Sequence record: MK327934.1
Reading direction: 5' to 3' (one strand)
DNA: 64,000 bases
Source of the DNA: Escherichia phage vB_EcoM_G2469
This document shows positions 6,565 to 62,235 of the stretch, piece by piece (position 1 is the stretch's first letter; the number at the start of each line of letters is the position of its first letter). The position numbers and the translations under genes are program-made. Below the pieces are notes generated by a model, which was given only the letters and a program-made list of their open reading frames with translations, was not told the origin of the DNA and did not search any database.

Positions 6565-6791
6565 TAGTAAGTTTCCTTCCAATAAGTTGTACCGTTTTCA
6601 GTGATTTCACGGAAGATACCATAGATAGGCATTTCATCACCGAGTTTTTCGTAAACGTAAACCACTTCAGTGTAGCATAAAAATTCGGTCCAGTTTTTCT
6701 GTACAACAACTAAATCAGGATTAAACAGAACATCTTCAAACTCATCGATGTTTGAATCAGTAGTTACGTTTTTAATGATTTGACGTTTCAT
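6564..6791 (-). CDS. hypothetical protein
   Basis: start moved to ATG at 6789-6791 with aggag SD; upstream part of track ORF is promoter read-through. Confidence 0.45.
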
Positions 6792-6819
6792 AATATTCTC
6801 CTCTTGTTTTGATAGGTCT

Positions 6820-6849
6820 ATAGTATCATAGACCATAGTTGTTGTACAT
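6820..6849 (-). promoter_or_regulatory. early-type sigma70 promoter (TGTACA -35, TACTAT -10)
   Basis: 17-bp spacing; conserved gataggtctata element with local inverted repeat. Confidence 0.45.
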
Positions 6850-7373
6850 CATTTTAGCAAAATAAAATCAACTTGTTCTGCCAATGAACGTCTGAACATT
6901 AATTGATAACTTCCGAGGATGAAATCAGGTGCTTCATAGACCGCGATGTAGTATCCTTTAGCTTTCAAGAGTTTAACATCCACCTGGTCATCAAACCATG
7001 CATAAACCGCGTCAACACTTTCAAATCCAAAATAGAACCCTTGAGCCCAATCTTCACTCAATTCAAATGTGTGCTCAATTCTATAGTATCTTAAGATATT
7101 TTGTTCAAGGAGTTTGTCTTCATTTACTGTAGGACGATTAGGGACATTATAGTTGTCACCGTGATGGTAGAAGTTACCTGAGATTATTCCATGTTTATCA
7201 AGGAACTCCCATGTTTCTTCAGAGTTGTCGGTGCCCGACCAACCGTACGGCGAGCGAGGTTCTTTATTCCAAGAGGTTTCCCAAATTCTGACGGCTTTAC
7301 CGTCTTCGATAGCAATTCCTGGTAATGATTCACGTTGAGTACAAAAACTACGTTCTACGCGGTAAACTAACAT
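6849..7373 (-). CDS. hypothetical protein
   Basis: 174-aa ORF, ATG start, gaggag SD. Confidence 0.55.
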   Translation of the reverse strand: MLVYRVERSFCTQRESLPGIAIEDGKAVRIWETSWNKEPRSPYGWSGTDNSEETWEFLDKHGIISGNFYHHGDNYNVPNRPTVNEDKLLEQNILRYYRIEHTFELSEDWAQGFYFGFESVDAVYAWFDDQVDVKLLKAKGYYIAVYEAPDFILGSYQLMFRRSLAEQVDFILLK

Positions 7374-7398
7374 ATTATTCTCCTCTGGTTAATATGGT

Positions 7399-7427
7399 TA
7401 TAATATCAAAACCGGAGGAGAAGTAAA
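7399..7427 (-). promoter_or_regulatory. early-type promoter GTTTAC-N17-TATTAT
   Basis: minus-strand GTTTAC ttctcctccggttttga TATTAT; spacer ttctcctc is complementary to downstream SD gaggagaa. Confidence 0.5.
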
Positions 7428-7432
7428 CAACT

Positions 7433-7861: not shown

Positions 7862-8326
7862 TTAAGCTTTACGAGGAGACACATAGCGAGTGATTTCAGA
7901 TTCTTTAACAACTCGGAAGTCACCTAAGAATACGATATTGTATAACTTTTCACCATCTTCAACCCATTGGTCACTAATGAAGCCACACATAGTATCAGTT
8001 TTGCTTGGATAACCGTATTCATCGATGAAGTCAAATTCTTTATCAGTCTGGAATTCAACACCTTTACACAAGGCCCATTTGAACTGTGTAGTAGGCTCAA
8101 CGATATCGCTTGAAGCAAAGTGGGCACTTACACGAGTTTCCAAGAATTTAGGACTTACGTAAGCATACTGGGCATCTTGTCCGCCAAAACTTGGGATGAT
8201 TCGAACTTTAACTTCTTTAACACGTCCCATGCCGTTAGTACGAAGCCCTGCTACTTCAACCAGACGACCTGCAGCTTTAGAACGAGAAGCAGGAGATACA
8301 CGAAGGATTTCACCAATAGTAATCAT
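7862..8326 (-). CDS. hypothetical protein, tandem paralog 2 of 3
   Basis: 154 aa; shared N-terminal SRSKAAG and C-terminal QWVEDG motifs. Confidence 0.6.
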   Translation of the reverse strand: MITIGEILRVSPASRSKAAGRLVEVAGLRTNGMGRVKEVKVRIIPSFGGQDAQYAYVSPKFLETRVSAHFASSDIVEPTTQFKWALCKGVEFQTDKEFDFIDEYGYPSKTDTMCGFISDQWVEDGEKLYNIVFLGDFRVVKESEITRYVSPRKA

Positions 8327-8354
8327 AATTTCTCTCTTTGTTTAAATTGAATTC

Positions 8355-8384
8355 ACTATACTCCATCCATCCTTGGATGTACAA
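8355..8384 (-). promoter_or_regulatory. early-type promoter (TGTACA -35, TATAGT -10) with ccaaggatgg spacer element
   Basis: read on minus strand upstream of paralog 2. Confidence 0.45.
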
Positions 8385-8386
8385 CA

Positions 8387-8881
8387 TTAATTAAGGATAC
8401 TAACCACAGCACTACGTGGAACTACACTAAAATCACCTGCATGAACAACGTTCAGAAGTTCAACACCGTCTTCAATCCATTGGTCAGTTACCCATCCACT
8501 CACTGGACCTGCGAACGGACGTCGAATTGAAACAGCTTTACACAACAAATCAGTAGGCTCAATAGGCTTAATCAGAGTACCGTACATACAAGCGATATCC
8601 ATATCAATACAGATATCTTTAACGGGTTCTACTTCTTCAATCAACAGTTCAAAGTCGGTGCTTGGAAGGGCGGTAGTAGAAATTGTACCATATGAATTTT
8701 TAATTTCTAAGAATAACCAAGGGCCTTCAGCTTGTTTGATGAAGTTAACAATAGTGAAACTATTACCTTGAGTGGCACCTAAAATTTCACAAAACTTTTC
8801 ATAAGCTCGCACTGAAGCACCGTACCAGTTGATTTGTTTTTCGTCTTTCAGGATGTAAGTAGCCGTAGTATTGATATTCAT
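8387..8881 (-). CDS. hypothetical protein, tandem paralog 3 of 3
   Basis: 164 aa; C-terminal QWIEDGVELLNVVHAGDFSVV. Confidence 0.6.
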   Translation of the reverse strand: MNINTTATYILKDEKQINWYGASVRAYEKFCEILGATQGNSFTIVNFIKQAEGPWLFLEIKNSYGTISTTALPSTDFELLIEEVEPVKDICIDMDIACMYGTLIKPIEPTDLLCKAVSIRRPFAGPVSGWVTDQWIEDGVELLNVVHAGDFSVVPRSAVVSILN

Positions 8882-8912
8882 AATGTTTTTCCTGTTTGGT
8901 TAAGATAGAAAG

Positions 8913-8942
8913 ATTATACTCCAACCATCCTTGGTTGTAAAC
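8913..8942 (-). promoter_or_regulatory. early-type promoter GTTTAC-N18-TATAAT
   Basis: minus strand GTTTAC aaccaaggatggttggag TATAAT upstream of paralog 3. Confidence 0.55.
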
Positions 8943-12826: not shown

Positions 12827-13407
12827 TAAAAATTCAACATTTTCAAATGAATGATTTTGTATAATCGAGATAAAGGGTCATATTCTAAGTCTTCAATTTC
12901 CACAATCTCAAATCTAGAGATACCTGAAACCATGTACTCTTGTTCAGATTCAATCATATCTAGGACGTCAACACGCTTTTCTTCCATAACATGCTTAGGG
13001 TTCTTTCCGGCGAGTACAATGTTAACCATGTTTTGGTAGTAATCAAAAATGAATGGAGCATTCCTGAGACTAAGAATAGTGTACGTCTGATATTCCCAAC
13101 TCCCAGAGAACTGTCTGGCCGTACCAAAGTCTGTTGTAAACGATGTTACTCGTCCAGGAGACCAATGGCATCCAACAGAAAGAAGGGAAAGACGTTCTAC
13201 TTCTTCTGGAGTTACACCACGGTAGAGTTCTACTGGTACTGTAGAAGTCATATGCTTACGAACAAGATGGTCTAATTCATAGTGGAAATCTGGGTCTTCC
13301 TTAGAATCAGTGCAAGCCCAGAGAATGTTTTGTTCTTGTTTAGTGAATTTATCATCAATTAGTGCTGCGAGATATTCGCGTTCTTGAAGTTCAGATTGAC
13401 ATGTCAT
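12826..13407 (-). CDS. modB: ADP-ribosyltransferase ModB-like
   Basis: 193 aa; ART motifs YRG, SFTTDFG, EQEYMVSG. Confidence 0.65.
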   Translation of the reverse strand: MTCQSELQEREYLAALIDDKFTKQEQNILWACTDSKEDPDFHYELDHLVRKHMTSTVPVELYRGVTPEEVERLSLLSVGCHWSPGRVTSFTTDFGTARQFSGSWEYQTYTILSLRNAPFIFDYYQNMVNIVLAGKNPKHVMEEKRVDVLDMIESEQEYMVSGISRFEIVEIEDLEYDPLSRLYKIIHLKMLNF

Positions 13408-13434
13408 GATAGACCTCCATTTAAAGATAAGCCT

Positions 13435-13463
13435 ATCATAACACGAGAGGAGGGAATGTAAAC
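13435..13463 (-). promoter_or_regulatory. early-type promoter GTTTAC-N17-TATGAT
   Basis: upstream of modB; leader has ggagg SD. Confidence 0.5.
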
Positions 13464-18463: not shown

Positions 18464-18757
18464 TTATTCACCTGTGATTTCGGTTACGATATCTTTGTTA
18501 TCGAAATTAGGGTCACAATACAAAACATAGTTGTACTGCATGATACCGCCAGACTTAAGTTGTTCAACAACTTTATTAACCATATTAGGACGGTCTCGTT
18601 TAGTGATGTTCATGATATCAGAGAAGATTTGTTGTTCAACATCTTCTTGATTTGCAGTCATTGACCACTCACAGAGGTCTTTATCATAACCTGCCGTAAC
18701 TGGAGCCGGTGCACATGATACTGCAAGTAAGATTGCTGCCAATGATAACTTTTTCAT
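18464..18757 (-). CDS. sp: spackle-like periplasmic protein
   Basis: 97 aa with signal peptide; same size and position as T4 Sp. Confidence 0.65.
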   Translation of the reverse strand: MKKLSLAAILLAVSCAPAPVTAGYDKDLCEWSMTANQEDVEQQIFSDIMNITKRDRPNMVNKVVEQLKSGGIMQYNYVLYCDPNFDNKDIVTEITGE

Positions 18758-18786
18758 TTTAACTCCTTAGTTGATTTGATAGGACT

Positions 18787-18816
18787 ACTATACTATAGTC
18801 CATCTATAATGTAAAC
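18787..18816 (-). promoter_or_regulatory. early-type promoter GTTTAC-N18-TATAGT
   Basis: -10 flanked by ggactac/gtagtcc-type inverted repeat. Confidence 0.5.
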
Positions 18817-19965: not shown

Positions 19966-20279
19966 ATTTCCTCGCAAAATGCCCATTCAGCGTGATAAAC
20001 TGTAGCACCTTTAGTATCATTCATTTGAACTACATCTACCGGAGAAATTACTCGATAGAGACGTGGTTCACCTCCATAAGAGCGTGCTGCTCGTCCTGCA
20101 TAAATCTTTGCTAAACCGATATCTTCAGTAAAGAATACACGATCCAAGTTTTTCTTACGTCCAGTTTCAGACAGAACTCCTGTTTCTTCAGGAGGACAAA
20201 GCATGTTTTCGATGTTAGCTGAACTACTTGAACCGTGATAAAAAATCTTAAATTCTGCTTTACAATCGATGGTTTTCAT
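19962..20279 (-). CDS. hypothetical protein
   Basis: 105-aa ORF, ATG start, ggaga SD. Confidence 0.5.
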   Translation of the reverse strand: MKTIDCKAEFKIFYHGSSSSANIENMLCPPEETGVLSETGRKKNLDRVFFTEDIGLAKIYAGRAARSYGGEPRLYRVISPVDVVQMNDTKGATVYHAEWAFCEEI

Positions 20280-20285
20280 TTTGTT

Positions 20286-20334
20286 CTCCAGTAGTTGATA
20301 GGTCTATAATAACACAACTACTGGAGAAGTAAAC
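20286..20334 (-). promoter_or_regulatory. early-type promoter GTTTAC-N17-TATTAT inside a 12-bp inverted repeat that includes the SD
   Basis: arms ctccagtagttg (20286-20297) and caactactggag (20317-20328); -10 lies between them. Confidence 0.55.
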
Positions 20335-20709
20335 TTAAAAATGTAATTTAGATACATCTGCGTTGATTTCACTTTGGTTTGCGTCATATGCAATTAAACG
20401 AACCGCTTTAGATGGGTCATTCAATGCATAGAAATGATGGAACATTGCTCGAACGATATCACCATTTACGAGTTCTACCTGGATAGGAGAACCTTTTTCG
20501 AGTTGGAAATGTTCATAAGCTTTGATGGTTCGTAGATAATCAAGTTTTTGATTTCCGGCTCCAACTATTTGTACGATACGTTTGCCCATGTTTTCCATAC
20601 GAGATACAATAGTTTTAGGAGCAAGAATAACGTAGGTTGCCAGCGGAGAAACTACTTCAACAGTTGTGTTTTCGGTGATTGCAGTAAAAATTGCTTGAGA
20701 CATATTCAT
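20335..20709 (-). CDS. hypothetical protein
   Basis: 124-aa ORF, ATG start, agagga SD. Confidence 0.5.
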   Translation of the reverse strand: MNMSQAIFTAITENTTVEVVSPLATYVILAPKTIVSRMENMGKRIVQIVGAGNQKLDYLRTIKAYEHFQLEKGSPIQVELVNGDIVRAMFHHFYALNDPSKAVRLIAYDANQSEINADVSKLHF

Positions 20710-20738
20710 AATGTTTTCCTCTTGGTTGGTGTAAGTAC

Positions 20739-20768
20739 ATCATATCATGCCTAGAGGAAGATGTAAAC
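20739..20768 (-). promoter_or_regulatory. early-type promoter GTTTAC-N18-TATGAT
   Basis: read on minus strand. Confidence 0.5.
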
Positions 20769-36691: not shown

Positions 36692-37408
36692 ATGAATTAT
36701 AACTCAATATACGAAAAGCTTATCACCAATGCTAAATCAAGAAGTTTAGATGGTTATACAGAACGTCATCACATTATACCACAATGTTTAGGTGGAAGTG
36801 ATGATGCTTTAAACTTAGTAGACTTAACACCGGAAGAACATTATTTGGCACATCAACTGTTGGTAAAAATCCATCCAGATAATGCCTCTTTAATATATGC
36901 CGCTCGTATGATGACCATATCATCTCCTAAAGCAGATAGAAGCAAAAACAAATTATTTGGATGGCTTCGACGTAAGAATCAAGAAGTTCAAAAGAACAAA
37001 GAATTCACTGCTGAAACCCGTAAGAAAATGTCTGAGTCTGCAAAAAATAAACCAAAGATTACATGTCCACACTGCGGTTTAACCGGCACTGAAGGAAACA
37101 TGAGACGTTGGCATTTTGATAACTGTAAACAAGGCCCTACGCCTAAAATAGTAAAACTTGATCAAGAAACAAAAGATAAAATAATTAAAACCATGGCCAC
37201 GAAAATTTGGAAAGAAGATTCTTGCCCGTTTTGTGGCTTAACTACTAAGTTATCGGCGTTAAAGCCACATATAAAATTCTGTAAATCAAATCCTAACAGA
37301 AAGAAAAAAGAGGACAAGAAAATTAAATGTCCTCATTGCGATAAAATAGGGATCCCTGCTAATATGCATCGTTGGCATTTTGATAACTGTAAACATAAGC
37401 CTCATTAA
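36692..37408 (+). CDS. HNH homing endonuclease with three C-terminal zinc-finger repeats
   Basis: 238 aa; HNH core ERHHIIPQCLGG...NLVDLTPEEHYLAH; CPHCG...RWHFDNCK repeated; opposite strand to neighbours. Confidence 0.75.
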   Translation: MNYNSIYEKLITNAKSRSLDGYTERHHIIPQCLGGSDDALNLVDLTPEEHYLAHQLLVKIHPDNASLIYAARMMTISSPKADRSKNKLFGWLRRKNQEVQKNKEFTAETRKKMSESAKNKPKITCPHCGLTGTEGNMRRWHFDNCKQGPTPKIVKLDQETKDKIIKTMATKIWKEDSCPFCGLTTKLSALKPHIKFCKSNPNRKKKEDKKIKCPHCDKIGIPANMHRWHFDNCKHKPH

Positions 37409-39093
37409 GAGGCTTTCATTACAGTAAATCGTCCAACTTTGCTCATTTGCAAATGTTGTCCATAAGCTTGTGGGTCATGGTCTCTGTGACTAATTATAAA
37501 CACGTTTGCATCGGTTAGAGAGTTAAGAATTGTTGAAATAGCTTTAATACCTTCAGAATCAGTCGCGGAATCCATGACTTCGTCCATAATTAATGTATTG
37601 ATTCTAACACCAGAGACCTTTTCAGCGATATCTCGCCATGTAAACAACAATGCGATATCGATACGTGCCTTTTCACCTTGACTAAATGAAGCATAACTGA
37701 ATTCTTCACGTCCACGTGATTTTATAGATTCATTGAATTCTTCGTCAATAGAAAACACGTAATCAGCTTCCATGATTTTAAGATAATGGTTAATCTGCTT
37801 GTTGAACAGAGGCACATATTTTTTAATGATAGCACCTTTAATACCAGAATCTTTTAACATATCTGTGATAATACCACGATGGTATTTTTCAAGAACGATA
37901 TCCGATTTTGTTTTAATGATTTTATCAAGTTCTTTTTGAAGCAAAGCTATCTCATCGGCATGGTCGATAAATTCCGCCGAGGCTTGTTCTATTGCAGCTT
38001 TAACTTTCTTAGCTTTATCAATAGTGGCAATCATTGCTTGTTTCTTGGTACGAATATCAGATGCAATGTCCTGTTTAGTCTTAACATTAGCTCTATATTC
38101 GTCCACTAGGACACTCAGATTATCTCTGTGACAGGTAAGTTGCTCGAATGAGTGATTACATTCATGAAGCTTATCGGTAATCTTAGAGACAATAGGATCA
38201 CCCTGGTGCAACTGTGATGCACAAGTAGGACATGTGCCGCCATCATGATACATCTTAATAACTTTGTTATATGAGTCAATTTTAGATTTAATCAAGAATG
38301 CTTCTTGTCCTATCTTGTTGAATGCCTCAGTAGGGTCTTCATCAAGAACGATATTAAGTAGTCGCTCATTAGCTTCTTCTATTTCTGCTTTTAATGAACG
38401 AGCTTCTTTGGCTAGGTCGTCATACATATTCTGTAGACGCGCTACATTATCACCAGATAATTTCTTTTGACGTTCGATATTCTCGTTATAAATCTTAATT
38501 TGTTGGATAACACCATCTTTCTTGGCATCGAGAACTTGTCCCTGGGAATTAAGTTCTCGAACTTGAGACTTATTGATTTTATCCATTTCAGCGAGTGTGC
38601 CGACTTCTAAAAGGTCTTCGACAAGTTTTCTACGAGCAGGGGTGCTAAGAGCCATGAAAGGGGTATACCCTGCCGTCCCAAGCACAACTATTTGTTTAAA
38701 AGACGCGTATGACATTCCGATGCTACGTTCAAATTCTTCTTGGAAGTCACGACTGCTGGCAGATTCATCGAGACGAACACCATCAACGGAGATTTCGAAA
38801 ATATTGGGCTTTTGGCCACGTCTAATGAAGTATTTTTTATCATCGAATTCCATCCAAAGCTCAACTAAGAGCTCTTTCTTGTTCGTGCTATTAATGATTT
38901 GTCCTTTCTTAACATCACGAAATGGTTTACCGAAAAGTCCGAAAGTAATGGCTTCTAACATCGTAGATTTACCACCGCCGTTTTTACCTGTGATTAAGGT
39001 CTTTTGGACTTTATCTAATTGGATATCGATAAAATTTTGCCCAACAGACATTATATTTTTATAACGAACACGATTTAATTTAAATGTTTTCAC
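37405..39093 (-). CDS. 46: recombination endonuclease subunit (Rad50/SbcC-like)
   Basis: 562 aa; GTG start; Walker A GKNGGGKST; T4 gp46-like. Confidence 0.9.
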   Translation of the reverse strand: MKTFKLNRVRYKNIMSVGQNFIDIQLDKVQKTLITGKNGGGKSTMLEAITFGLFGKPFRDVKKGQIINSTNKKELLVELWMEFDDKKYFIRRGQKPNIFEISVDGVRLDESASSRDFQEEFERSIGMSYASFKQIVVLGTAGYTPFMALSTPARRKLVEDLLEVGTLAEMDKINKSQVRELNSQGQVLDAKKDGVIQQIKIYNENIERQKKLSGDNVARLQNMYDDLAKEARSLKAEIEEANERLLNIVLDEDPTEAFNKIGQEAFLIKSKIDSYNKVIKMYHDGGTCPTCASQLHQGDPIVSKITDKLHECNHSFEQLTCHRDNLSVLVDEYRANVKTKQDIASDIRTKKQAMIATIDKAKKVKAAIEQASAEFIDHADEIALLQKELDKIIKTKSDIVLEKYHRGIITDMLKDSGIKGAIIKKYVPLFNKQINHYLKIMEADYVFSIDEEFNESIKSRGREEFSYASFSQGEKARIDIALLFTWRDIAEKVSGVRINTLIMDEVMDSATDSEGIKAISTILNSLTDANVFIISHRDHDPQAYGQHLQMSKVGRFTVMKAS

Positions 39094-39940
39094 TTAAATT
39101 TTTCCTCATGAATTCAGAAACTAAAGCCTGTAAAGAACTTTGTATAGGATATCCTAAATTGACTAAATTTTTAGAAAAAGTCACATATTTAGGTTTGTTC
39201 ATTTTAACCCATTCAACGTAAAGCATATCAAAATTTTCCCAATGATATCCTTTTCTTCTAGATTTCAAATGAGTGTCTCTAACTTTAGGATTTTTCCAAC
39301 TGCGTGAAACTCCAGCCGATAATGATTCTCTATATTCGGCTGTTTTAGATATTTTACGACAAGCATCCAAATGTTTTTGTTTATTAATAGGGTCACTAAA
39401 CCACTTTTGGGTCATAATAGAGACGGTTTCTTTAAATTCCTTTGAACTTGTCATAATTCTGTGTTTCTTTAAATTTTCCGGATTTTTAAACCATGCTTTT
39501 AAAGCTTGACTAATCTTAATTCTATTATCCTGATTGGAATAGTATAATGTCATTTTTATAGAATTAACTTTACAAACATTTTCGAATTCTAAAGAATACG
39601 CCTCGGCTATATTATTTAGTTCATGCGTTGTACAATTTAAATTAAATCGCCCGGTATACATTCTTTGAAGCGCGTTAATCATCTTATGGTTGCCAGTTTT
39701 TGCCAAAATGCTATGTGCAATAAAATGGTTATAATGACTTAAATGACACAAGTTCCATTTACATGTTTTAAAATCTGGAAAAATAGATTTTGGTAGTATA
39801 TGGTGAACCTGAGTCAGTCCTTTTACTTTATTAGTGGAATTAGTTTTTATAAAGTTTAAATACTCATCAAGTCCTTCCCACGAAGGGAAGGAGGTTTTAA
39901 GAATTTTATAAATTTGAGTTTCATAATCAGTCTTCGTCAT
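39080..39940 (-). CDS. HNH-like endonuclease
   Basis: HNH-like stretch QVHHILPKSIF...NLCHLSHYNHFIAH; start set to ATG 39938-39940 with gagga SD. Confidence 0.55.
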   Translation of the reverse strand: MTKTDYETQIYKILKTSFPSWEGLDEYLNFIKTNSTNKVKGLTQVHHILPKSIFPDFKTCKWNLCHLSHYNHFIAHSILAKTGNHKMINALQRMYTGRFNLNCTTHELNNIAEAYSLEFENVCKVNSIKMTLYYSNQDNRIKISQALKAWFKNPENLKKHRIMTSSKEFKETVSIMTQKWFSDPINKQKHLDACRKISKTAEYRESLSAGVSRSWKNPKVRDTHLKSRRKGYHWENFDMLYVEWVKMNKPKYVTFSKNLVNLGYPIQSSLQALVSEFMRKNLSENI

Positions 39941-40184
39941 TATACGCATCCTCAATACACGCTTCAGCCATTTTAAGAATAGAGCCGGGAGTATCGTTGT
40001 CCATTATATTAAAGCTAAATTCAATAGCCCAGTCGGTGCAGACATGAACTGCTTTAACTTCATTGCCTTCAACGCGTAATGGCTCAATCCAATACTTGAT
40101 AGTGTTCTCGAATCCATCATCATCTTTAACGTCCATTTCAACTTCAAGCCCAAGCCCAGCATTGTTAAATTCATCTAAAGTCAT
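39927..40184 (-). CDS. small acidic hypothetical protein
   Basis: 85-aa ORF, ATG start, 4-nt overlap with gene 47. Confidence 0.45.
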   Translation of the reverse strand: MTLDEFNNAGLGLEVEMDVKDDDGFENTIKYWIEPLRVEGNEVKAVHVCTDWAIEFSFNIMDNDTPGSILKMAEACIEDAYNDED

Positions 40185-42204: not shown

Positions 42205-42745
42205 ATAAAAAATCCAAACTAGGCGAATCGCTAACAACTTCCTTCTTTTCAGCCCCAGGAGCTTTATAAGCGGATTCTTCATAATGCGTCATTTTATCGT
42301 AGATGTCTTGAATAAACGTTTCATCTACCAACGCTACCATATCATCGTCATGACTGTCGTAGACATTATGAACGAAGTAACTATATTTCTTTGCAACTTC
42401 CTTACGTTCTTTTTTGATACGTTGGACAAAAGCATTAAAACAAGCTCGAGTTATGTATGCATGTGGGTTATTGTACTTAGTTTCGTCGAAATTATGAAGT
42501 CCCTTAATAGAGGCTTCAATCCCATCTGCAATCATCTCCTGCTTCCAAGACTGGGTATATCCTGAAAAGTTGAAACGTTTGGACAGGCCTTCGGCGATAA
42601 GCATAATTGCTAAACCGATGGTATCATTCTGACGAATAATTTTGTTTGGGTCTTTATTATTTAAGAGCTCCTTTTTCCACTCGATTATAGCGGCGAGAAG
42701 CTCTTTATTATTCACATAGTTATTTTTAGGTTTTTGTTCAGTCAT
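42188..42745 (-). CDS. 55: late-transcription sigma factor
   Basis: T4 gp55-like throughout; start at ATG 42743-42745 gives 185 aa as in T4. Confidence 0.85.
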
Positions 42746-42764
42746 AAGTACCTCTTGGCTCAAT

Positions 42765-42815
42765 TCATAGGTCTATTATATCATAATATTTAGAGACCTA
42801 TCTTAAAGCACGAGA
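42765..42815 (-). promoter_or_regulatory. promoter region for gene 55 (MotA-box-like TGCTTTA and TATAAT flanked by ataggtct/agacctat inverted repeat)
   Basis: read on minus strand. Confidence 0.4.
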
Positions 42816-42817
42816 TA

Positions 42818-43086
42818 CTATCGGAGCAAACAATAAGCCTGAAACACTTTTTCCATTAAACGTTTGAACTCATGGATATCGATATAAAGCTCAGTAAGAC
42901 CGGCATTATAAAGAAAATCTAAAAAGTTCTCATGTGTTTCGTTATAGTCGCCTTCGTTTAATTGAGATACATGAGTTTCCCAAAAACCAACACCTTTAAC
43001 GAATGGAAATACGTGACTTTCATGTATTCGTCAACATAAAATTCGCCCAGCTTTTCTTCAGTTATACTGATTCGAGTTAATTTCAT
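42818..43086 (-). pseudogene. probable frameshifted small gene (about 88 codons across two frames)
   Basis: ATG at 43084-43086 in ATGA overlap opens 42 codons; a 70-codon open frame with no start codon continues in the +2 frame to 42818. Confidence 0.35.
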
Positions 43087-43310: not shown

Positions 43311-43639
43311 TTTACCGCCTTAACAATTTTAAGGTCAACGAATTTTTTCTTACGTTGATTTTTCATACGACGGATAGTCTTTTCAGAGATTTCATGTTTC
43401 TGATAAGCTTTAGATTCAACACCAAATGCAGCAACGTCAAATTCAGAAAGAATATATTGTACTAGAATTTCACGAATAGAATTACGTCCAATTTTCTGGT
43501 CGTGTTTTTGCATGATTTCATAAAGACGGAATTCCCACGCATCAAGAACTTGAGGAGTAACAATATTGCCAGATTCCAGAAGAGCAACAACTTTATCGAA
43601 AGCGAAAGAATTAACTACGTTTTTGATTTTAGTAGACAT
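43307..43639 (-). CDS. hypothetical protein
   Basis: start moved to ATG 43637-43639 with gagga SD. Confidence 0.5.
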   Translation of the reverse strand: MSTKIKNVVNSFAFDKVVALLESGNIVTPQVLDAWEFRLYEIMQKHDQKIGRNSIREILVQYILSEFDVAAFGVESKAYQKHEISEKTIRRMKNQRKKKFVDLKIVKAVK

Positions 43640-43676
43640 ATTATTTTCCTCGGTTATTTTATTATCCAACGAGAGA

Positions 43677-43706
43677 ATTATACTCATCTCTCAAGAGTTT
43701 GTATAC
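43677..43706 (-). promoter_or_regulatory. early-type promoter (GTATAC -35, TATAAT -10)
   Basis: -10 flanked by gagag/ctctc inverted repeat. Confidence 0.45.
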
Positions 43707-43945
43707 TATTTTTTAAGCATGAAAAGTAAGTAATTTGTATCACGTGGAGTAATATCAACACCCATATCAAAGATGCCTTTATAGATTGGGTATTTGTTTT
43801 CGGTTGTATCGAAGCTGAAACTATTTCCATCACAACTAACAGTAATAGCATCTGTTAAAATGTCATACTCAATCCTAACAATTGAATCCCCAATTTTAAC
43901 GTCGAGGTGTTTTTTGAATTTGATAAAATCTAATTCTTGGGCCAT
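43706..43945 (-). CDS. hypothetical protein
   Basis: 79-aa ORF, ATG start. Confidence 0.5.
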   Translation of the reverse strand: MAQELDFIKFKKHLDVKIGDSIVRIEYDILTDAITVSCDGNSFSFDTTENKYPIYKGIFDMGVDITPRDTNYLLFMLKK

Positions 43946-43976
43946 GATATTTTCCTCATTTTAAGACGATAGGAAG

Positions 43977-44005
43977 ATAATAACATGTCTTCCTATCGTT
44001 GTACA
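43977..44005 (-). promoter_or_regulatory. early-type promoter (TGTACA -35, TATTAT -10)
   Basis: -10 flanked by gataggaaga/tcttcctatc inverted repeat. Confidence 0.45.
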
Positions 44006-44897: not shown

Positions 44898-45076
44898 GAC
44901 TTAATTTCCTTCGCAATTGAACAGAAGATACCACGGTCACAAAGCATTTCACCAATTTCTGGATATTTGATTGAACGGTACCAAACATCCAGGCTTGAAA
45001 CTCTGGTTATCTGTATGGCATTACCATTGACAGAATAGTACTGGTCAACCTTAATTTCTTTATCTTCAATTGTCAT
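44894..45076 (-). CDS. small hypothetical protein
   Basis: start moved to ATG 45074-45076 with gagga SD; upstream part of track ORF is promoter. Confidence 0.4.
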   Translation of the reverse strand: MTIEDKEIKVDQYYSVNGNAIQITRVSSLDVWYRSIKYPEIGEMLCDRGIFCSIAKEIKS

Positions 45077-45104
45077 TTTATTTTCCTCTATAGTAGATGG
45101 TTTA

Positions 45105-45133
45105 ATCTTAACACATCTATTGAGGATGTAAAC
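45105..45133 (-). promoter_or_regulatory. early-type promoter GTTTAC-N17-TAAGAT
   Basis: read on minus strand. Confidence 0.45.
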
Positions 45134-50716: not shown

Positions 50717-51021
50717 TATAATGTTCTCTCAAATTTGTGGAAGCATTTACGGCATTTCAATTTCAAGTTATCAGTGGTCCAGTTAACCAGTTGGACTTGG
50801 ATAGTTCCACATTCCGGGCATGGATGTTTTGCTGCCGATTTGGCAGCATTTTCACGTCGTTCAACCATTTTCATTATTTCGTTCCATGCCGGAGGAACGA
50901 ACTCTTCTTCACCGTGGATTTTATCTCGCTGAACAAATTCAATCTTTGAACTATCGTCAATAAACTTAACCAAGCGGTGATTAGTGTTCATATCAATATC
51001 CTCTAGAAGACGTAGGTTCAT
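50716..51021 (-). CDS. zinc-ribbon protein
   Basis: 101 aa; CPECG...CRKC. Confidence 0.5.
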   Translation of the reverse strand: MNLRLLEDIDMNTNHRLVKFIDDSSKIEFVQRDKIHGEEEFVPPAWNEIMKMVERRENAAKSAAKHPCPECGTIQVQLVNWTTDNLKLKCRKCFHKFERTL

Positions 51022-51971
51022 TATAACACCTCAATGGCATTTCGTAAACCGTCCGCTTTCGCATTCAGAGCTTTTAATGATTTAGTTTGTTCTGCAATTT
51101 GGGCTTCGACTTCTTTCAGACGAGATTTGAGATATTCGCGTTCTTCAGCCATGATATCGACCTTTTCTGCTTTAGGTTCTTTAATAGGCTTAGGTTTATA
51201 CGTATTAGGGTTCTTCAGCTTAATTCGGGTACGAGAACTGTATAACATTGAACCGTTATCTTCGGATTCGTCGAACGTTTCAACAACATCCATAGTCTCT
51301 AACAATGTAATAAGTTTATAAGACAACGAACGAATAGTTTTGTTGTGCTTATTAATTTCTTCGGCTTTCATGGTACCGAGATTACGTGAGTAATAATAAG
51401 GAACCTGGATATCAATTGATAATGATGCGTTACCATTACCGGTTGGTTTGAATACTGCAGTAACCCAATCTTTAACATGAACTTTATTTGTACGACCATC
51501 ACCGCCTGTGAATAATTTACGAGAATGTTTAAAAAGCATATTCACTTGTTTATTGAATTCACAAGCAAATTTATCAGCGAATTTAGTTTCAGGAATGGTA
51601 GATAACCAATCAGCCAAATGAGTCTTTTTAACATCATTAACAATAGTGAATTCAACCAAATCGGTTTTAGATGTCACAGATTTAATAAAGCTCGGCTTCA
51701 TAAAGTTTTTAATGTTATCGCGAGCTACAGTAGAAGATAATAAACGAGAACGTTTGAACCATTGAAGCAGTGTCCCTAATGAATGAGAATACGCATTCTG
51801 AGTATCTTTACAGATATGATTTTCTTGGCCTGTGTATGTACCAAAATCGCGAAGAATACCACTTACTACATCTCGGTGTGGAACATCAAATCCTAGTGCG
51901 CCAGTAGCGCGCTGAGCATGAACGTTAGCGATAAGGCCGGCAAAGTATTCAATGTAATGTGAACGTGTCAT
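51021..51971 (-). CDS. hypothetical protein with C-terminal coiled coil
   Basis: 316-aa ORF, ATG start. Confidence 0.55.
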   Translation of the reverse strand: MTRSHYIEYFAGLIANVHAQRATGALGFDVPHRDVVSGILRDFGTYTGQENHICKDTQNAYSHSLGTLLQWFKRSRLLSSTVARDNIKNFMKPSFIKSVTSKTDLVEFTIVNDVKKTHLADWLSTIPETKFADKFACEFNKQVNMLFKHSRKLFTGGDGRTNKVHVKDWVTAVFKPTGNGNASLSIDIQVPYYYSRNLGTMKAEEINKHNKTIRSLSYKLITLLETMDVVETFDESEDNGSMLYSSRTRIKLKNPNTYKPKPIKEPKAEKVDIMAEEREYLKSRLKEVEAQIAEQTKSLKALNAKADGLRNAIEVL

Positions 51972-51999
51972 AATATTTTCCTCTCGTTAAGATAAATTC

Positions 52000-52028
52000 A
52001 TTATACTCCAACCATCCTTGGTTGTACA
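52000..52028 (-). promoter_or_regulatory. early-type promoter (TGTACA -35, TATAAT -10) with ccaaggatgg spacer element
   Basis: same spacer element as at 8355 and 8913. Confidence 0.45.
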
Positions 52029-53086: not shown

Positions 53087-53614
53087 TTATGCGTGAACCG
53101 TCTTTAAACGTTCTTCAAATTTCCGAAGAGTACTAATACGTTCTGCTTTCTGTTTTGTATAGTTTGCAATACGTTCTGAAGTGAGAGCGTATCGTTCGTT
53201 TACTGTTTCTTTCATGAAGTCAGGGATTTCACGAGAAGCTTTAATTTCATCAAACTTATCGAGTACTGCCTGGTCTTCAGCAATTAAATTTTCGTACATC
53301 TCGATATCTTTCTTGATGAAGTCGATATCTTCCTGGGTTACTTTGGATAAACGAGATGCTTTATCCTTTTTGTACTGCTCGTTAGTTTCACGAGACCAGA
53401 ATAATGTACGTTTTTTGTTAGTGTTTTTGTAGACTTCCACAATTCCAACTGAATCGATGATAACAATCCAATTCCAGCGAGATTTGAAAATCTGACCTCC
53501 ATCTACGGTAATCTCGTTACCATAAGCAACGTCATTAAAGAACTTGCTTTGTGCTTCAGATTTAAATTTACCGTCGTTATAATTTACCAGGTTGAAAATA
53601 TCTTTAGCGTTCAT
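53087..53614 (-). CDS. hypothetical protein
   Basis: 175-aa ORF, ATG start, ggagg SD. Confidence 0.5.
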   Translation of the reverse strand: MNAKDIFNLVNYNDGKFKSEAQSKFFNDVAYGNEITVDGGQIFKSRWNWIVIIDSVGIVEVYKNTNKKRTLFWSRETNEQYKKDKASRLSKVTQEDIDFIKKDIEMYENLIAEDQAVLDKFDEIKASREIPDFMKETVNERYALTSERIANYTKQKAERISTLRKFEERLKTVHA

Positions 53615-53641
53615 GTTTTACCTCCAGTAGTTGATAGGTCT

Positions 53642-53670
53642 ATAATAACATAACCATAGACCTTGTAAAC
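53642..53670 (-). promoter_or_regulatory. early-type promoter GTTTAC-N17-TATTAT
   Basis: shares the element ctccagtagttgataggtctataataaca with the promoter at 20286-20334. Confidence 0.5.
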
Positions 53671-55474: not shown

Positions 55475-55756
55475 TTACTTATCGCACTTAGCAACATAAT
55501 TAGGCATATCACAGAATACGGAGCGAGTAACTACTCGGCCCTTTGACCATGCTTCAGTTGCTTGTCCGGCCGTGCTATTAATATAGCTTGATCTGATATT
55601 CTCAATACCCTGAGAATGTGATGCATTTACCGAACCATTGGAAGGCCCAGAAGACTGGTTACCACCAGCTCCTGCACTACCGCCGGCTGGACCTGTGGTA
55701 GCACCAACAGAGAATGCCATCATTACTGCGAATAAACCAATTACTAATTTTTTCAT
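55475..55756 (-). CDS. secreted Gly/Ser-rich protein
   Basis: 93 aa; N-terminal signal peptide. Confidence 0.5.
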   Translation of the reverse strand: MKKLVIGLFAVMMAFSVGATTGPAGGSAGAGGNQSSGPSNGSVNASHSQGIENIRSSYINSTAGQATEAWSKGRVVTRSVFCDMPNYVAKCDK

Positions 55757-55787
55757 ATTTACCTCAAGTTAATGGTTATTTATCTAC

Positions 55788-56777
55788 TTATTTATAGTAA
55801 GAATTATGATTTTCGAGATAGACTTGTTCAAGGAAGTCATCCCAGAAACTCATATCTACTTTTTGTTGCATACCGTTCTTAGCGGCTTGTTCTGATGCTT
55901 GTTCAACTTGGTCAACGATATCTTCTAGGAATTCTTGTACAGTTTTAAACGTATGTTTACCAAGCTTAACATCAAGAATAAATGGAGCGTCCTGAAGTGG
56001 GTAAACCAGGTCGCCGGTTTTGTAAATTTCCAGTAGTTGAAGTCCACCACGACATGCATGACTCAATGCTTTCCAGTCAATACCTTCGTTAGCTTCTGCC
56101 TTACGAGCACGTTCACCATAGTTCTCTTCCAGTTTAACCAGGATGGCATTGAACTCTTTATTGGTTAACGTATCTTGGAATTTACGGTCTAACAGATTAT
56201 AGAATGTTTGCTTACCTGTTTTCTCGTTTTCGGTTTCAACCCACGAAGCAAATTCACCTACAGGCAGAACATTCTTCATATGTGATAAACGAATTACTGC
56301 ACCATTATCAAAGTATCGTCCCCATTCATTAGAACGTTTAAGGGCTTGACGAAGAACAGCCAGTCGAGAACCCTTGACACCGTATTTAGAAGCTTGCTTA
56401 CGGACATACCCTAAATAAGATTTCATGTTAGTGGTATAGAAACGAGACCTGTTATCTTGAATATACTTCCATACATCAGGCAAATCAGATTTAACTACTA
56501 GACTTTGTGGAGTGTGAAGCATGTCTAATGCGACGGTTTCACCATCCGCAGCTAGTTTAAAGAAATATTTGAGACTATACAACTCATGGTCCACGTCGTC
56601 TTTTGTGTTCTTAGAAGATGTGTTATTCGTGTTCTTGCTCATGTGTTCTTTAACGTTACCGGTCAAGATATCACGAGCATGAGGGACATAAATTTCTTTA
56701 AAATCGACGTCAGATTCAGGAGTAGACGTTCCATAAAGGTGGCTACCAAAGTAGCCTTTCATAATTGTTTTCATCAT
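55788..56777 (-). CDS. nucleotidyltransferase-fold protein (putative)
   Basis: 329 aa; N-terminal GSHLYGTSTPESDVDF resembles the GS...D.D minimal nucleotidyltransferase motif. Confidence 0.45.
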   Translation of the reverse strand: MMKTIMKGYFGSHLYGTSTPESDVDFKEIYVPHARDILTGNVKEHMSKNTNNTSSKNTKDDVDHELYSLKYFFKLAADGETVALDMLHTPQSLVVKSDLPDVWKYIQDNRSRFYTTNMKSYLGYVRKQASKYGVKGSRLAVLRQALKRSNEWGRYFDNGAVIRLSHMKNVLPVGEFASWVETENEKTGKQTFYNLLDRKFQDTLTNKEFNAILVKLEENYGERARKAEANEGIDWKALSHACRGGLQLLEIYKTGDLVYPLQDAPFILDVKLGKHTFKTVQEFLEDIVDQVEQASEQAAKNGMQQKVDMSFWDDFLEQVYLENHNSYYK

Positions 56778-57968: not shown

Positions 57969-58075
57969 TTTACCATACTCGTTTCAATAAGATTCACTAT
58001 GCCGTTTACCATGTTATAAGTAAACATCGGATAATTGTATTGTATCACAACGTATACGATAAGCAAAAGTTTCAT
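57965..58075 (-). CDS. small hydrophobic peptide (36 aa), not in ORF track
   Basis: MKLLLIVYVV...; ggaga SD; low confidence because of size. Confidence 0.25.
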   Translation of the reverse strand: MKLLLIVYVVIQYNYPMFTYNMVNGIVNLIETSMVK

Positions 58076-58104
58076 TTTGTTCTCCATTTGTTTTGATAGG
58101 ACTA

Positions 58105-58133
58105 CTATAACATAGTCCTATCAAGATGTAAAC
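58105..58133 (-). promoter_or_regulatory. early-type promoter GTTTAC-N17-TTATAG
   Basis: -10 flanked by gataggacta/tagtcctatc inverted repeat. Confidence 0.45.
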
Positions 58134-58346: not shown

Positions 58347-58526
58347 TCACATAATCTCGTTAACATACATTTGCAATTCGGTGTGGGCGTCAGCCATCTT
58401 TTTCATAGCTCTGTTAATGTCGATGTCTCCATCTTCGCAACCATGAGCATTTTCCCAATCAGATACCGCATTAGCGTACTCTTCAATCAAAAACATTAAC
58501 TTAGAAATTTTTTCTTTACGTGACAT
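58347..58526 (-). CDS. small hypothetical protein
   Basis: start moved to ATG 58524-58526 with aggaga SD. Confidence 0.4.
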   Translation of the reverse strand: MSRKEKISKLMFLIEEYANAVSDWENAHGCEDGDIDINRAMKKMADAHTELQMYVNEIM

Positions 58527-58553
58527 AACGTTCTCCTCTAGTAAGTAAGGTTT

Positions 58554-58582
58554 ACTATAACACAACCTGAGGAGAAGTAAAC
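58554..58582 (-). promoter_or_regulatory. early-type promoter GTTTAC-N17-TATAGT
   Basis: spacer ttctcctc complementary to downstream SD. Confidence 0.5.
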
Positions 58583-61719: not shown

Positions 61720-62178
61720 CTAGATTTTAATCACTGCTTTAGAAGCTTTTCCTGGTAGTCGTTTACTGTTAATAATAGCCATTCTGCATTGAAGAGTCTT
61801 CATTTTGAATGCCGGATTTTCGCGACAAACTGTAAGTCCTAACCAAAGATTTCCATCAGTTATTTCTAAACGGCCTGGGCGATATTCGACACCTTCGACA
61901 AAATCTTCATCAACATCTGGACGTGCCGGCATTGATAAAAATTCTGTAACTTCTTTAACATGATTTTTTACTTTATGAAATAATTCAAAAACGTAATTCT
62001 CATCTATTTCTCTCTGGATGGCACGATCTAAGAGATGTTGAGAATACTTGATATGAAAGCCTGGTAGTCCAAGAGACTTTGCAGCATCTTTTATACCGGC
62101 ATTTATTTTGCGGAACTCCGTTTCAAAGATTCGACGGAGTTTATTACGGCGGATAAAAACTTCCGAATTGATAGTCAT
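61720..62178 (-). CDS. regB: RegB endoribonuclease
   Basis: T4 RegB-like (MTINSEVFIRRNKLRR...); start at ATG 62176-62178 gives 152 aa. Confidence 0.85.
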   Translation of the reverse strand: MTINSEVFIRRNKLRRIFETEFRKINAGIKDAAKSLGLPGFHIKYSQHLLDRAIQREIDENYVFELFHKVKNHVKEVTEFLSMPARPDVDEDFVEGVEYRPGRLEITDGNLWLGLTVCRENPAFKMKTLQCRMAIINSKRLPGKASKAVIKI

Positions 62179-62206
62179 TTTGATTTCTCCTCTAGTTGAC
62201 AAGTCT

Positions 62207-62235
62207 ATAGTAACACAACTAGAGGAGAAGTAAAC
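62207..62235 (-). promoter_or_regulatory. early-type promoter GTTTAC-N17-TACTAT inside a 14-bp SD-containing inverted repeat
   Basis: arms ttctcctctagttg and caactagaggagaa on minus strand. Confidence 0.5.

Follow-up and report, generated by a model that had tools for sequence, protein, structure and literature searches.

In T4-type phages, the early genes have very strong promoters with the pattern GTTTAC-N17/18-(TGn)TAnnAT, which are used by the sigma-70 RNA polymerase of the host (PMC2988021), and 57 early promoters were predicted in phage RB69 in 2006 (PMC1524935). Here we describe early promoters of Escherichia phage vB_EcoM_G2469 (sequence record MK327934.1) in which the spacer between the -35 and -10 elements carries an arm complementary to the Shine-Dalgarno (SD) sequence of the gene that follows. 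The stretch of DNA analysed, called the window below, comprises 64,000 nucleotides (nt). A 6-kb piece of it is 98-99% identical to RB69-group phages (Mosigvirus; vB_EcoM_MM02, RB69), and its numbering runs nearly parallel to the start of RB69-group genomes, the window being the first 64 kb; it is the early/prereplicative region of an RB69-like T4-type phage, with nearly all genes on the minus strand.

Hairpins associated with early promoters have been described in T4-type phages as promoter-early stem-loops (PeSLs), in RB49/phi1, PST/T4 and nt-1/KVP40 (Arbiol 2010, PMC2839356; Comeau 2014, PMC4122927). Like the loci in the window, a PeSL directly follows the stop codon of the upstream ORF (open reading frame) and consists of a strong sigma-70-like early promoter, preceded by an AT-rich region, and then an SD and an ATG, with a stem-loop in or overlapping the promoter; it is a repeated cassette, found mostly before small ORFs of unknown function. 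Unlike those in the window, the published stems have been described as terminators/attenuators and recombination sites: in RB49 the promoter usually contains both arms (Gn/Cn), and the figure legend for PST/T4 places the stems just upstream of it, whereas in the window the SD itself serves as the 3' arm, the -10 and the expected start site lie in the loop, and a U-tract is missing. Neither PeSL paper mentions translation or ribosomes (PMC2839356; PMC4122927).

SD sequestration by a hairpin with a promoter inside is known from T4 e (lysozyme), soc, 49 and I-TevI and from Aeh1 mobE, where the SD is sequestered in the long RNA, and the hairpin of e, with its internal late promoter, has a 100-fold effect on translation (PMC3014915). 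As in the window, the 5' arm in the T4 e, soc, 49 and I-TevI cases lies upstream of the internal start, so the SD is free only on the local RNA. However, those promoters are late ones (gp55, TATAAATA) and the hairpin serves to postpone expression until late times, whereas the promoters described here are of the immediate-early sigma-70 type (GTTTAC-N17/18-TAnnAT) and carry the anti-SD arm in the -35/-10 spacer.

One of our loci is the leader of regB. The endoribonuclease RegB cleaves early mRNAs at the GGAG of their SDs, its own mRNA included; it is inhibited by RNA secondary structure, and the regB early promoter is off after 2-3 min (PMC3014915; PMC1702504). RegB autoregulation thus concerns the same gene and leader, with an early promoter and a GGAG SD that RegB cleaves, but in the texts examined it is described as promoter shut-off plus SD cleavage, with no promoter-spanning stem (PMC3014915). 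Intrinsic terminators are likewise stable intergenic RNA stem-loops, but they have a GC-rich stem, a loop of 3-8 nt and a 3' U-tract, unlike the AU-rich stems with loops of 17-30 nt and no U-tract found here. Our literature search did not find SD sequestration by early-promoter spacers described; an earlier description, of the regB stem in particular, may exist. The feature is a combination of the PeSL with promoter-inside-hairpin SD sequestration, a configuration that we did not find described.

Early promoters with an anti-SD arm in the spacer

The pattern GTTTACN{17,18}TANNAT matches the window 15 times, always on the minus strand (15/15), as compared to 0.55 +/- 0.73 matches expected from shuffles; with TGTACA added as an alternative -35, there are 19 minus-strand matches and one plus-strand match. 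A generic sigma-70 scan of the window showed no discrimination (59 sites found vs 48.6 expected), whereas the T4-type pattern discriminates. With TATAGT-type -10 elements allowed and an SD and ATG 20-35 nt past the -10, the curated set contains 25 early promoters, which bears out the minus-strand promoter pattern proposed by a first-pass annotation of this DNA. These promoters are sigma-70-like and intergenic, with an AT-rich upstream region and an SD and ATG downstream, as in PeSLs. Each is named below by its highest coordinate, and all lie on the minus strand.

At four of the 25 promoters (62235, 20334, 7428 and 58582), the spacer arm pairs with the SD-containing leader over 8-14 bp, and these are the four that the first-pass annotation had singled out as clear cases. 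Its broader statement, that many spacers are complementary to the ribosome-binding site, holds for these four and weakly for two to three more (45133, 20768 and 13463), not for the rest of the set. The four strong sites (class A) share one layout: the 5' arm directly follows the -35, the TGn/-10 and the expected start lie in the loop, and the SD lies in the 3' arm, which starts 8-21 nt past the -10. The stems are AU-rich and have an A-rich 3' flank.

The element at 62176..62235, from -35 to ATG (-35 GTTTAC at 62230-62235, -10 TACTAT at 62207-62212, ATG at 62176-62178), belongs to regB: the gene behind it encodes 152 amino acids (aa), matches Pfam family REGB_T4 (PF10715, E 3.7e-69) and is 78% identical to T4 RegB. 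Its 5' arm TTCTCCTCTAGTTG (62216..62229) pairs perfectly over 14 bp with the 3' arm CAACTAGAGGAGAA (62185..62198), which contains the SD (GGAG). The element at 20277..20334 (-35 at 20329-20334, -10 TATTAT at 20306-20311, ATG at 20277-20279) precedes a homolog of RB69ORF040c (105 aa, phrog_2110); here the 5' arm TTCTCCAGTAGTTG (20315..20328) forms 14 bp with the SD-containing 3' arm CAACTACTGGAGAA (20284..20297). The two stems are two compensated base pairs apart, and the two cassettes are about 85% identical over roughly 57 nt. At 7371..7428, before a 174-aa ORF, the arms TTCTCCTCCGGTT (7410-7422) and AACCAGAGGAGAA (7378-7390) form a 13-bp stem in which one pair is a C.A mismatch; in a 99% identical relative (locus L070), which has T where the 5' arm of the window has C, the 13-bp stem is perfect, and the mismatch looks like a recent uncompensated change. 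The element at 58524..58582 precedes a 59-aa DUF7438 ORF and has an intrinsic terminator directly upstream; its core arms TTCTCCTC (58569-58576) and GAGGAGAA (58531-58538) form 8 bp, with a G.U-containing extension.

Among the weaker sites, 45074..45133 pairs TCCTCAATAG (45117-45126) with CTATAGAGGA (45084-45093). The site at 20707..20768 pairs TTCCTCT (20753-20759) with AGAGGAA (20716-20722), with a significant duplex energy and an SD that is not clearly occluded, and 13405..13463, upstream of a ModB-like ADP-ribosylase gene, is marginal, its CCTCC/GGAGG pairing being indistinguishable from composition. In a contiguous-helix test on this genome alone, only the two 14-bp stems are clear outliers.

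We compared predicted folds of a read-through RNA (from 30 nt 5' of the -35 to ATG+15) and of a local RNA starting about 7 nt past the -10. At the four strong sites, the predicted probability that the SD is unpaired is 0.00 in the read-through RNA vs 0.5-0.8 in the local RNA (0.77 at regB), and for 45133 the values are 0.01 and 0.68. This occlusion was never reproduced by spacer shuffles at the four strong sites, and never or rarely at 45133. The read-through RNAs are predicted to bury the SD in a stem of -20 to -25 kcal/mol (the fold at 20334 has -25.5 kcal/mol, z -4.2), and the locally initiated leaders are predicted to be unstructured. Those leaders (20262-20299, 62161-62200, 7356-7393 and 58509-58547, minus strand) in fact fold worse than dinucleotide shuffles (z +0.4 to +1.4), which suggests that open initiation regions on the short RNAs may be under selection. 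The folding logic proposed earlier for this group, i.e. a long RNA that hides the SD and a promoter-initiated leader that frees it, is thus reproduced in the predictions.

At most promoters the upstream ORF ends 0-5 nt before the -35 without a terminator. No terminator lies ahead of 62235, 20334 or 7428, where the upstream stop is 0-4 nt before the -35; intrinsic terminators (UUCG loops, T-runs) were found upstream of 58582, 20768, 14932 and 55422 only. Since stops lie near the -35 and terminators are missing, read-through RNA should exist. The start, placed by sigma-70 geometry about 7 nt past the -10, falls in the loop between the arms, so that both properties of the T4 promoter-inside-hairpin genes are found here, the start site between the arms (by geometry) and the SD paired in the long RNA (by prediction).

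Similar promoters occur in T4. In a sample of 30 early-type T4 promoters (1-76 kb and 143-169 kb), spacer-dependent SD occlusion is above shuffles at 5-6 of the 30, as compared to about 0.6 expected; the sites are regB, denV, nrdC.8, motB.2 (P8.1, a well-studied promoter), e.8 and one near ndd.4. The T4 regB element reads GTTTAC-TTTTCCTCTTGACTG-tgg-TATAAT-ttttctat-CAGTTAAGAGGAGAA-taac-ATG, and its stem has 15 bp, two of them G.U. The share of early promoters with an anti-SD arm is about one in five, in T4 and in the window alike.

Covariation of spacer and leader at regB and other genes

For regB, we compared 43 loci from viral contigs, which gave 20 distinct leaders. These contain at least nine different stems, each pairing the spacer with the SD region: TCTAGTTG/CAACTAGA, TCTTGACTG/CAGTTAAGA, TCTTTATG/CATAAAGA, the short stems TGTAAG/CTTACA, TTTTAGT/ACTAAAA and TGTAG/CTACA, and ATCCTCATTTG/CAAATGAGGAT, CCTCCTTT/AAAGGAGG and CTCCTCTTG/CAAGAGGAG. 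The SD core itself co-varies with its partner (TCTCC/GGAGA, TCCTC/GAGGA, CCTCC/GGAGG). A helix of at least 11 bp within the own lineage is found in 8 of the 20 leaders, as compared to 2.6% of the cross-lineage pairings.

Beyond regB, 21.6% of 116 unique promoter-leaders reach a helix score of at least 8 between the spacer and their own leader, as compared to 2.8% of swapped pairs. We also aligned 26 TCTCC/GGAG promoters with each core anchored separately, lineages that retain only the core included. In this alignment, 72.5% of the cells are paired vs 61.8% after shuffling (0/500), and the covariation score is 0.267 vs 0.116 after shuffling (0/500) and 0.07-0.09 with slid partners. Among orthologs of the RB69ORF040c homolog (the gene starting at 20279), the TCTCC/GGAGA core is kept in JS98-like phages, and distant lineages have a hairpin that brackets the -10 instead. 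For the genes behind 7428 and 58582, the only orthologs found are those of near-identical phages, so covariation is unreadable there. The compensatory changes across orthologs show that pairing between spacer and SD has been selected, most strongly at regB, a conclusion that the comparison of leaders supports well.

Other promoter hairpins and further features of the window

A second group of promoters (class B) has hairpins that bracket the -10. Four sites are significant (P<=0.01 vs spacer shuffles) and two to three are marginal. Perfect 12-bp helices (both P<0.001) are formed at 58073..58133 (arms 58114-58124 and 58093-58103) and at 43943..44005 (arms 43989-43999 and 43966-43976); the helix at 53612..53670 (AGGTCTAT/ATAGACCT) has 8 bp (P=0.004) and that at 6789..6848 (GGTCTAT/ATAGACC) has 7 bp (P=0.007). 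Marginal 6-bp helices lie at 18755..18816, upstream of an sp homolog (P=0.06), and at 43637..43706 (GAGAGA/TCTCTC, P=0.07). The stem sequences vary from promoter to promoter yet stay complementary, and T4 has class B hairpins at dmd, mobD.2, ipI, trna.4 and motB. Taken together, classes A and B place a stem-loop within or overlapping the promoter, as in PeSLs, at about 8-10 of the 25 promoters. In predicted folds, class B hairpins leave SD accessibility unchanged; their role could be attenuation, protection of the RNA end or insulation of the downstream initiation region.

The first transcribed bases are strongly conserved between promoters, reading AGACCTATCAAC(T/A)AC in the window (e.g. 20298-20305, 53627-53641 and 6806-6819) and ACAACTATCAACTAC in T4 (loci L069/L076). 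This conservation exceeds what the -10 and discriminator need, and the segment doubles as the class B 3' arm.

A third group (class C) consists of three promoters that share the exact 22-mer CCAAGGATGGWTGGAGTATART, comprising the spacer and the -10, with 0 occurrences expected: 51969..52028 (repeat at 52000-52021) and 8879..8942 (repeat at 8913-8934), both with the spacer CCAAGGATGGTTGGAG, and 8324..8383 (repeat at 8355-8376), with the spacer CCAAGGATGGATGGAG. Outside the window, the 22-mer turned up in near-identical phages only and not in the T4 segments examined; it could bind a protein, or it could belong to a cassette that was copied recently.

The first-pass annotation had noticed these two groups as well. 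The shared spacer element of class C is confirmed by the three exact copies. Of the inverted repeats around the -10, those at 58133, 44005, 53670 and 6848 are real, that at 18816 is marginal, and the site at 42765-42815 has no GTTTAC -35. Its suggestion that all groups together tie translation to promoter firing does not extend to these two groups, failing for class B because SD accessibility is unchanged.

The site without GTTTAC is a nested double hairpin (42739..42819, minus strand; minimum free energy (MFE) -24 kcal/mol) at a promoter-like sequence with a Mot-box-like TGCTTTA. Its outer helix pairs AGTATCTC (42812-42819, upstream of TGCTTTA) with GAGGTACT (42747-42754, the SD), and its inner helix pairs ATAGGTCT with AGACCTAT, bracketing TATAAT. 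The spacing from the box to the -10 is 15 or 23 nt, out of line with T4 middle promoters, in which it is 11-13 nt.

Other observations concern single genes. At 50991-51049 (minus strand), the -10 of promoter 51049 overlaps the first ATG (51021) of a 101-aa ORF, and a local transcript could express only a shortened product of 91 aa, whose ATG (50991) has a good SD. At 55756-55800 (minus strand), TATAAATA, which resembles a T4 late promoter, precedes the ATG of a 93-aa ORF (55475-55756) by about 40 nt. The SD of this ORF is weak and, in the predicted folds of longer transcripts, paired, with an MFE of only -7.8 kcal/mol; this site may be a late-type example of the promoter-in-hairpin device. A 238-aa ORF at 36692-37408 (plus strand) lies inside the minus-strand array between gp45.2-like and gp46-like genes and has no counterpart in the 98.8% identical MM02, from which a 291-aa ORF at 39080-39955 (minus strand) also differs. 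A Pfam search with these two ORFs gave nothing usable (one sub-threshold zinc-ribbon match); both are probably inserted mobile genes. Over the whole window, Rfam gave 0 matches at the gathering threshold, and a tRNA search found none.

What the promoter-spanning stems may do

The architecture, the predicted folds and the evolutionary selection for pairing constrain what the stems can mean, and the best explanation, which we hold to be somewhat better than an even guess, is that they insulate translation, keeping the local RNA translatable and the read-through RNA silent for the cistron concerned. In about one fifth of T4-type early promoters, the spacer would be shaped as the reverse complement of the SD-containing leader of the next gene. 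RNA polymerase would start about 7 nt past the -10, in the hairpin loop, and because the start lies in the loop, the local mRNA would contain the 3' arm only and its SD would be free. RNA from an upstream promoter would contain both arms and form a stem of 8-15 bp (about -20 kcal/mol) in which the SD is buried. On this model regB, the RB69ORF040c homolog and others would be translated essentially only from their own immediate-early transcripts, and delayed-early or middle read-through RNA would be silent for these cistrons; at regB, the read-through RNA would probably also resist RegB at GGAG. The logic is the one that experiments have established for T4 e, soc, 49 and I-TevI with their late internal promoters. 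As the internal promoter is early here, the device would confine synthesis to the first minutes, which makes sense for a toxic RNase such as RegB, a protein that needs tight control.

Several points weigh against this explanation. Start sites, read-through RNA and the effects on translation and on RegB are all things that we infer. With crude gene starts, occluded SDs in the window occur at 7 of 24 promoter-bearing vs 11 of 85 promoter-less junctions (p=0.07), and a contiguous helix of at least 8 at 6 of 24 vs 10 of 85 (p=0.11). The design is present in only 4-6 of the 25 promoters, and the class that brackets the -10 is equally strong without SD contact, so that SD pairing may be one form of a wider purpose served by promoter hairpins. 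When 12 promoter-leaders were aligned with plain MAFFT, RNAalifold predicted no pairs, the arms of different lineages being out of register. The asymmetry between G.U and A.C mismatches, a sense-strand test for RNA-level structure, is 13 vs 8 and not significant (6 vs 8 in an earlier count), several of the A.C cases being a TCTT/AAAA extension that recurs at the end of the helix. In vivo, RegB is able to cleave structured sites while the RNA is nascent (PMC1702504), and co-transcriptional kinetics may therefore weaken the effect of a stem. Finally, 58582 and 20768 lie behind intrinsic terminators, which limits read-through there.

The stems might instead serve mainly to hide the GGAG of the SD from RegB and from the RNase E/G decay that follows, so that long transcripts survive and short local ones are cut, with silencing as a side effect. 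RegB does cut GGAG in early SDs, its own included, and secondary structure blocks it; the resistance of most GGAG sites in middle and late RNA is unexplained; the flagship stem is that of regB itself; and all four strong stems cover GGAGAA with an A-rich tail that resembles the RegB/S1 consensus GGAGAAUAAAA (GGAGAAAUCAAAA, GGAGAACAAAA and GGAGAAUAAUA resemble the RegB site consensus, GGAG (or GGAU) followed by an A-rich 7-mer). Several stems, however, lie over sequences that RegB would cut poorly (that of T4 denV is resistant in any case, and the motif at 45133 and 20768 is GGAA), and seven promoters of the window with a GGAG SD have no stem. As the primary function we consider this shielding unlikely; it is closely related to translational insulation and compatible with it. 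The published reading of PeSLs, an attenuator or terminator joined to a promoter, would have the upstream polymerase stopped so that tandem strong promoters are not additive, with the SD overlap incidental. One RB49/phi1 PeSL stem-loop reduces downstream lacZ as much as rrnB T1, and stem-loops between -35 and -10 or overlapping the -10 have been described (Arbiol et al. 2010, PMC2839356); the class B hairpins of the window also lack SD involvement. The class A stems, however, have 17-30 nt loops and A-rich 3' flanks in place of a U-tract, their 3' arm follows the register of the SD precisely, the SD core co-varies with its partner, and true terminators (UUCG loops, T-runs) sit separately upstream of some promoters, which makes attenuation an improbable account of class A. 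On this anatomy we reject an intrinsic terminator for class A in particular, and a terminator scan called none of these stems.

If the stem hid the SD only until a ribosome came to the end of the upstream ORF and opened it, downstream translation on polycistronic RNA would be coupled to upstream translation and not blocked. The upstream stops at 20334, 62235 and 7428 lie close enough to raise this reading, with 0-4 nt to the -35 and 6-10 nt to the 5' arm. A ribosome with a stop codon in its A site, however, unwinds only about 5-7 nt past the stop, and the 5' arms begin 7 nt (20334), 11 nt (62235, 7428) and 51 nt (58582) past it. The expected unwinding would reach no further than the first base pair at 20334 and would leave the stems at 62235 and 7428 untouched, and 58582 lies 45 nt from its upstream stop. 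As the distance from the stop to the start of the arms is 7-11 nt or more, and since coupling leaves unexplained why the promoter start is always in the loop, we regard it as very unlikely. The inverted repeats could also act as DNA (cruciform, promoter opening) or simply ride in recombining promoter cassettes. The likeness of the 62235 and 20334 cassettes, the 22-mer shared by three promoters and the recombination of PeSLs (PMC2839356; PMC4122927) fit such a by-product, and the non-significant G.U/A.C test leaves DNA-level structure compatible. Spread of cassettes fails, however, to explain the compensatory changes between orthologs and paralogs, which rule out simple hitch-hiking; the T4 stems have several fixed G.U pairs, which are A.C mismatches on the other strand; and a cruciform would destroy the promoter. 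We give the DNA-level or by-product reading the smallest chance of all.

Translational insulation thus remains the reading we prefer, and a broader proposal can be attached to it, which we put forward tentatively as plausible but somewhat short of an even chance. It is that T4-type phages share a conserved layer of control in which about one fifth of early promoters encode the anti-SD arm of their own gene (regB, denV, motB.2/P8.1, nrdC.8 and e.8 in T4; regB and the RB69ORF040c homolog here), so that these proteins would be made only from immediate-early RNA and the cistrons on later read-through RNA would be untranslatable and RegB-resistant.

If true, promoter choice and translatability would be hard-wired together at single early genes in the best-studied lytic phage family, as an early-gene counterpart of the late hairpins at e, soc and 49. 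The toxic RNase RegB would be under a third layer of control, acting on read-through RNA, besides promoter shut-off and SD self-cleavage, and the escape of some GGAG sites on longer transcripts from RegB would have a concrete explanation that can be tested. Some of the PeSL stem-loops would be re-read as translational insulators and not as terminators. The stems would be relevant to annotating and engineering T4-like therapeutic phages and would offer compact parts for synthetic operons. For the infection itself, they would explain why some early proteins stop being made while their cistrons are still transcribed from upstream, and would help explain the sharp end of early protein synthesis.

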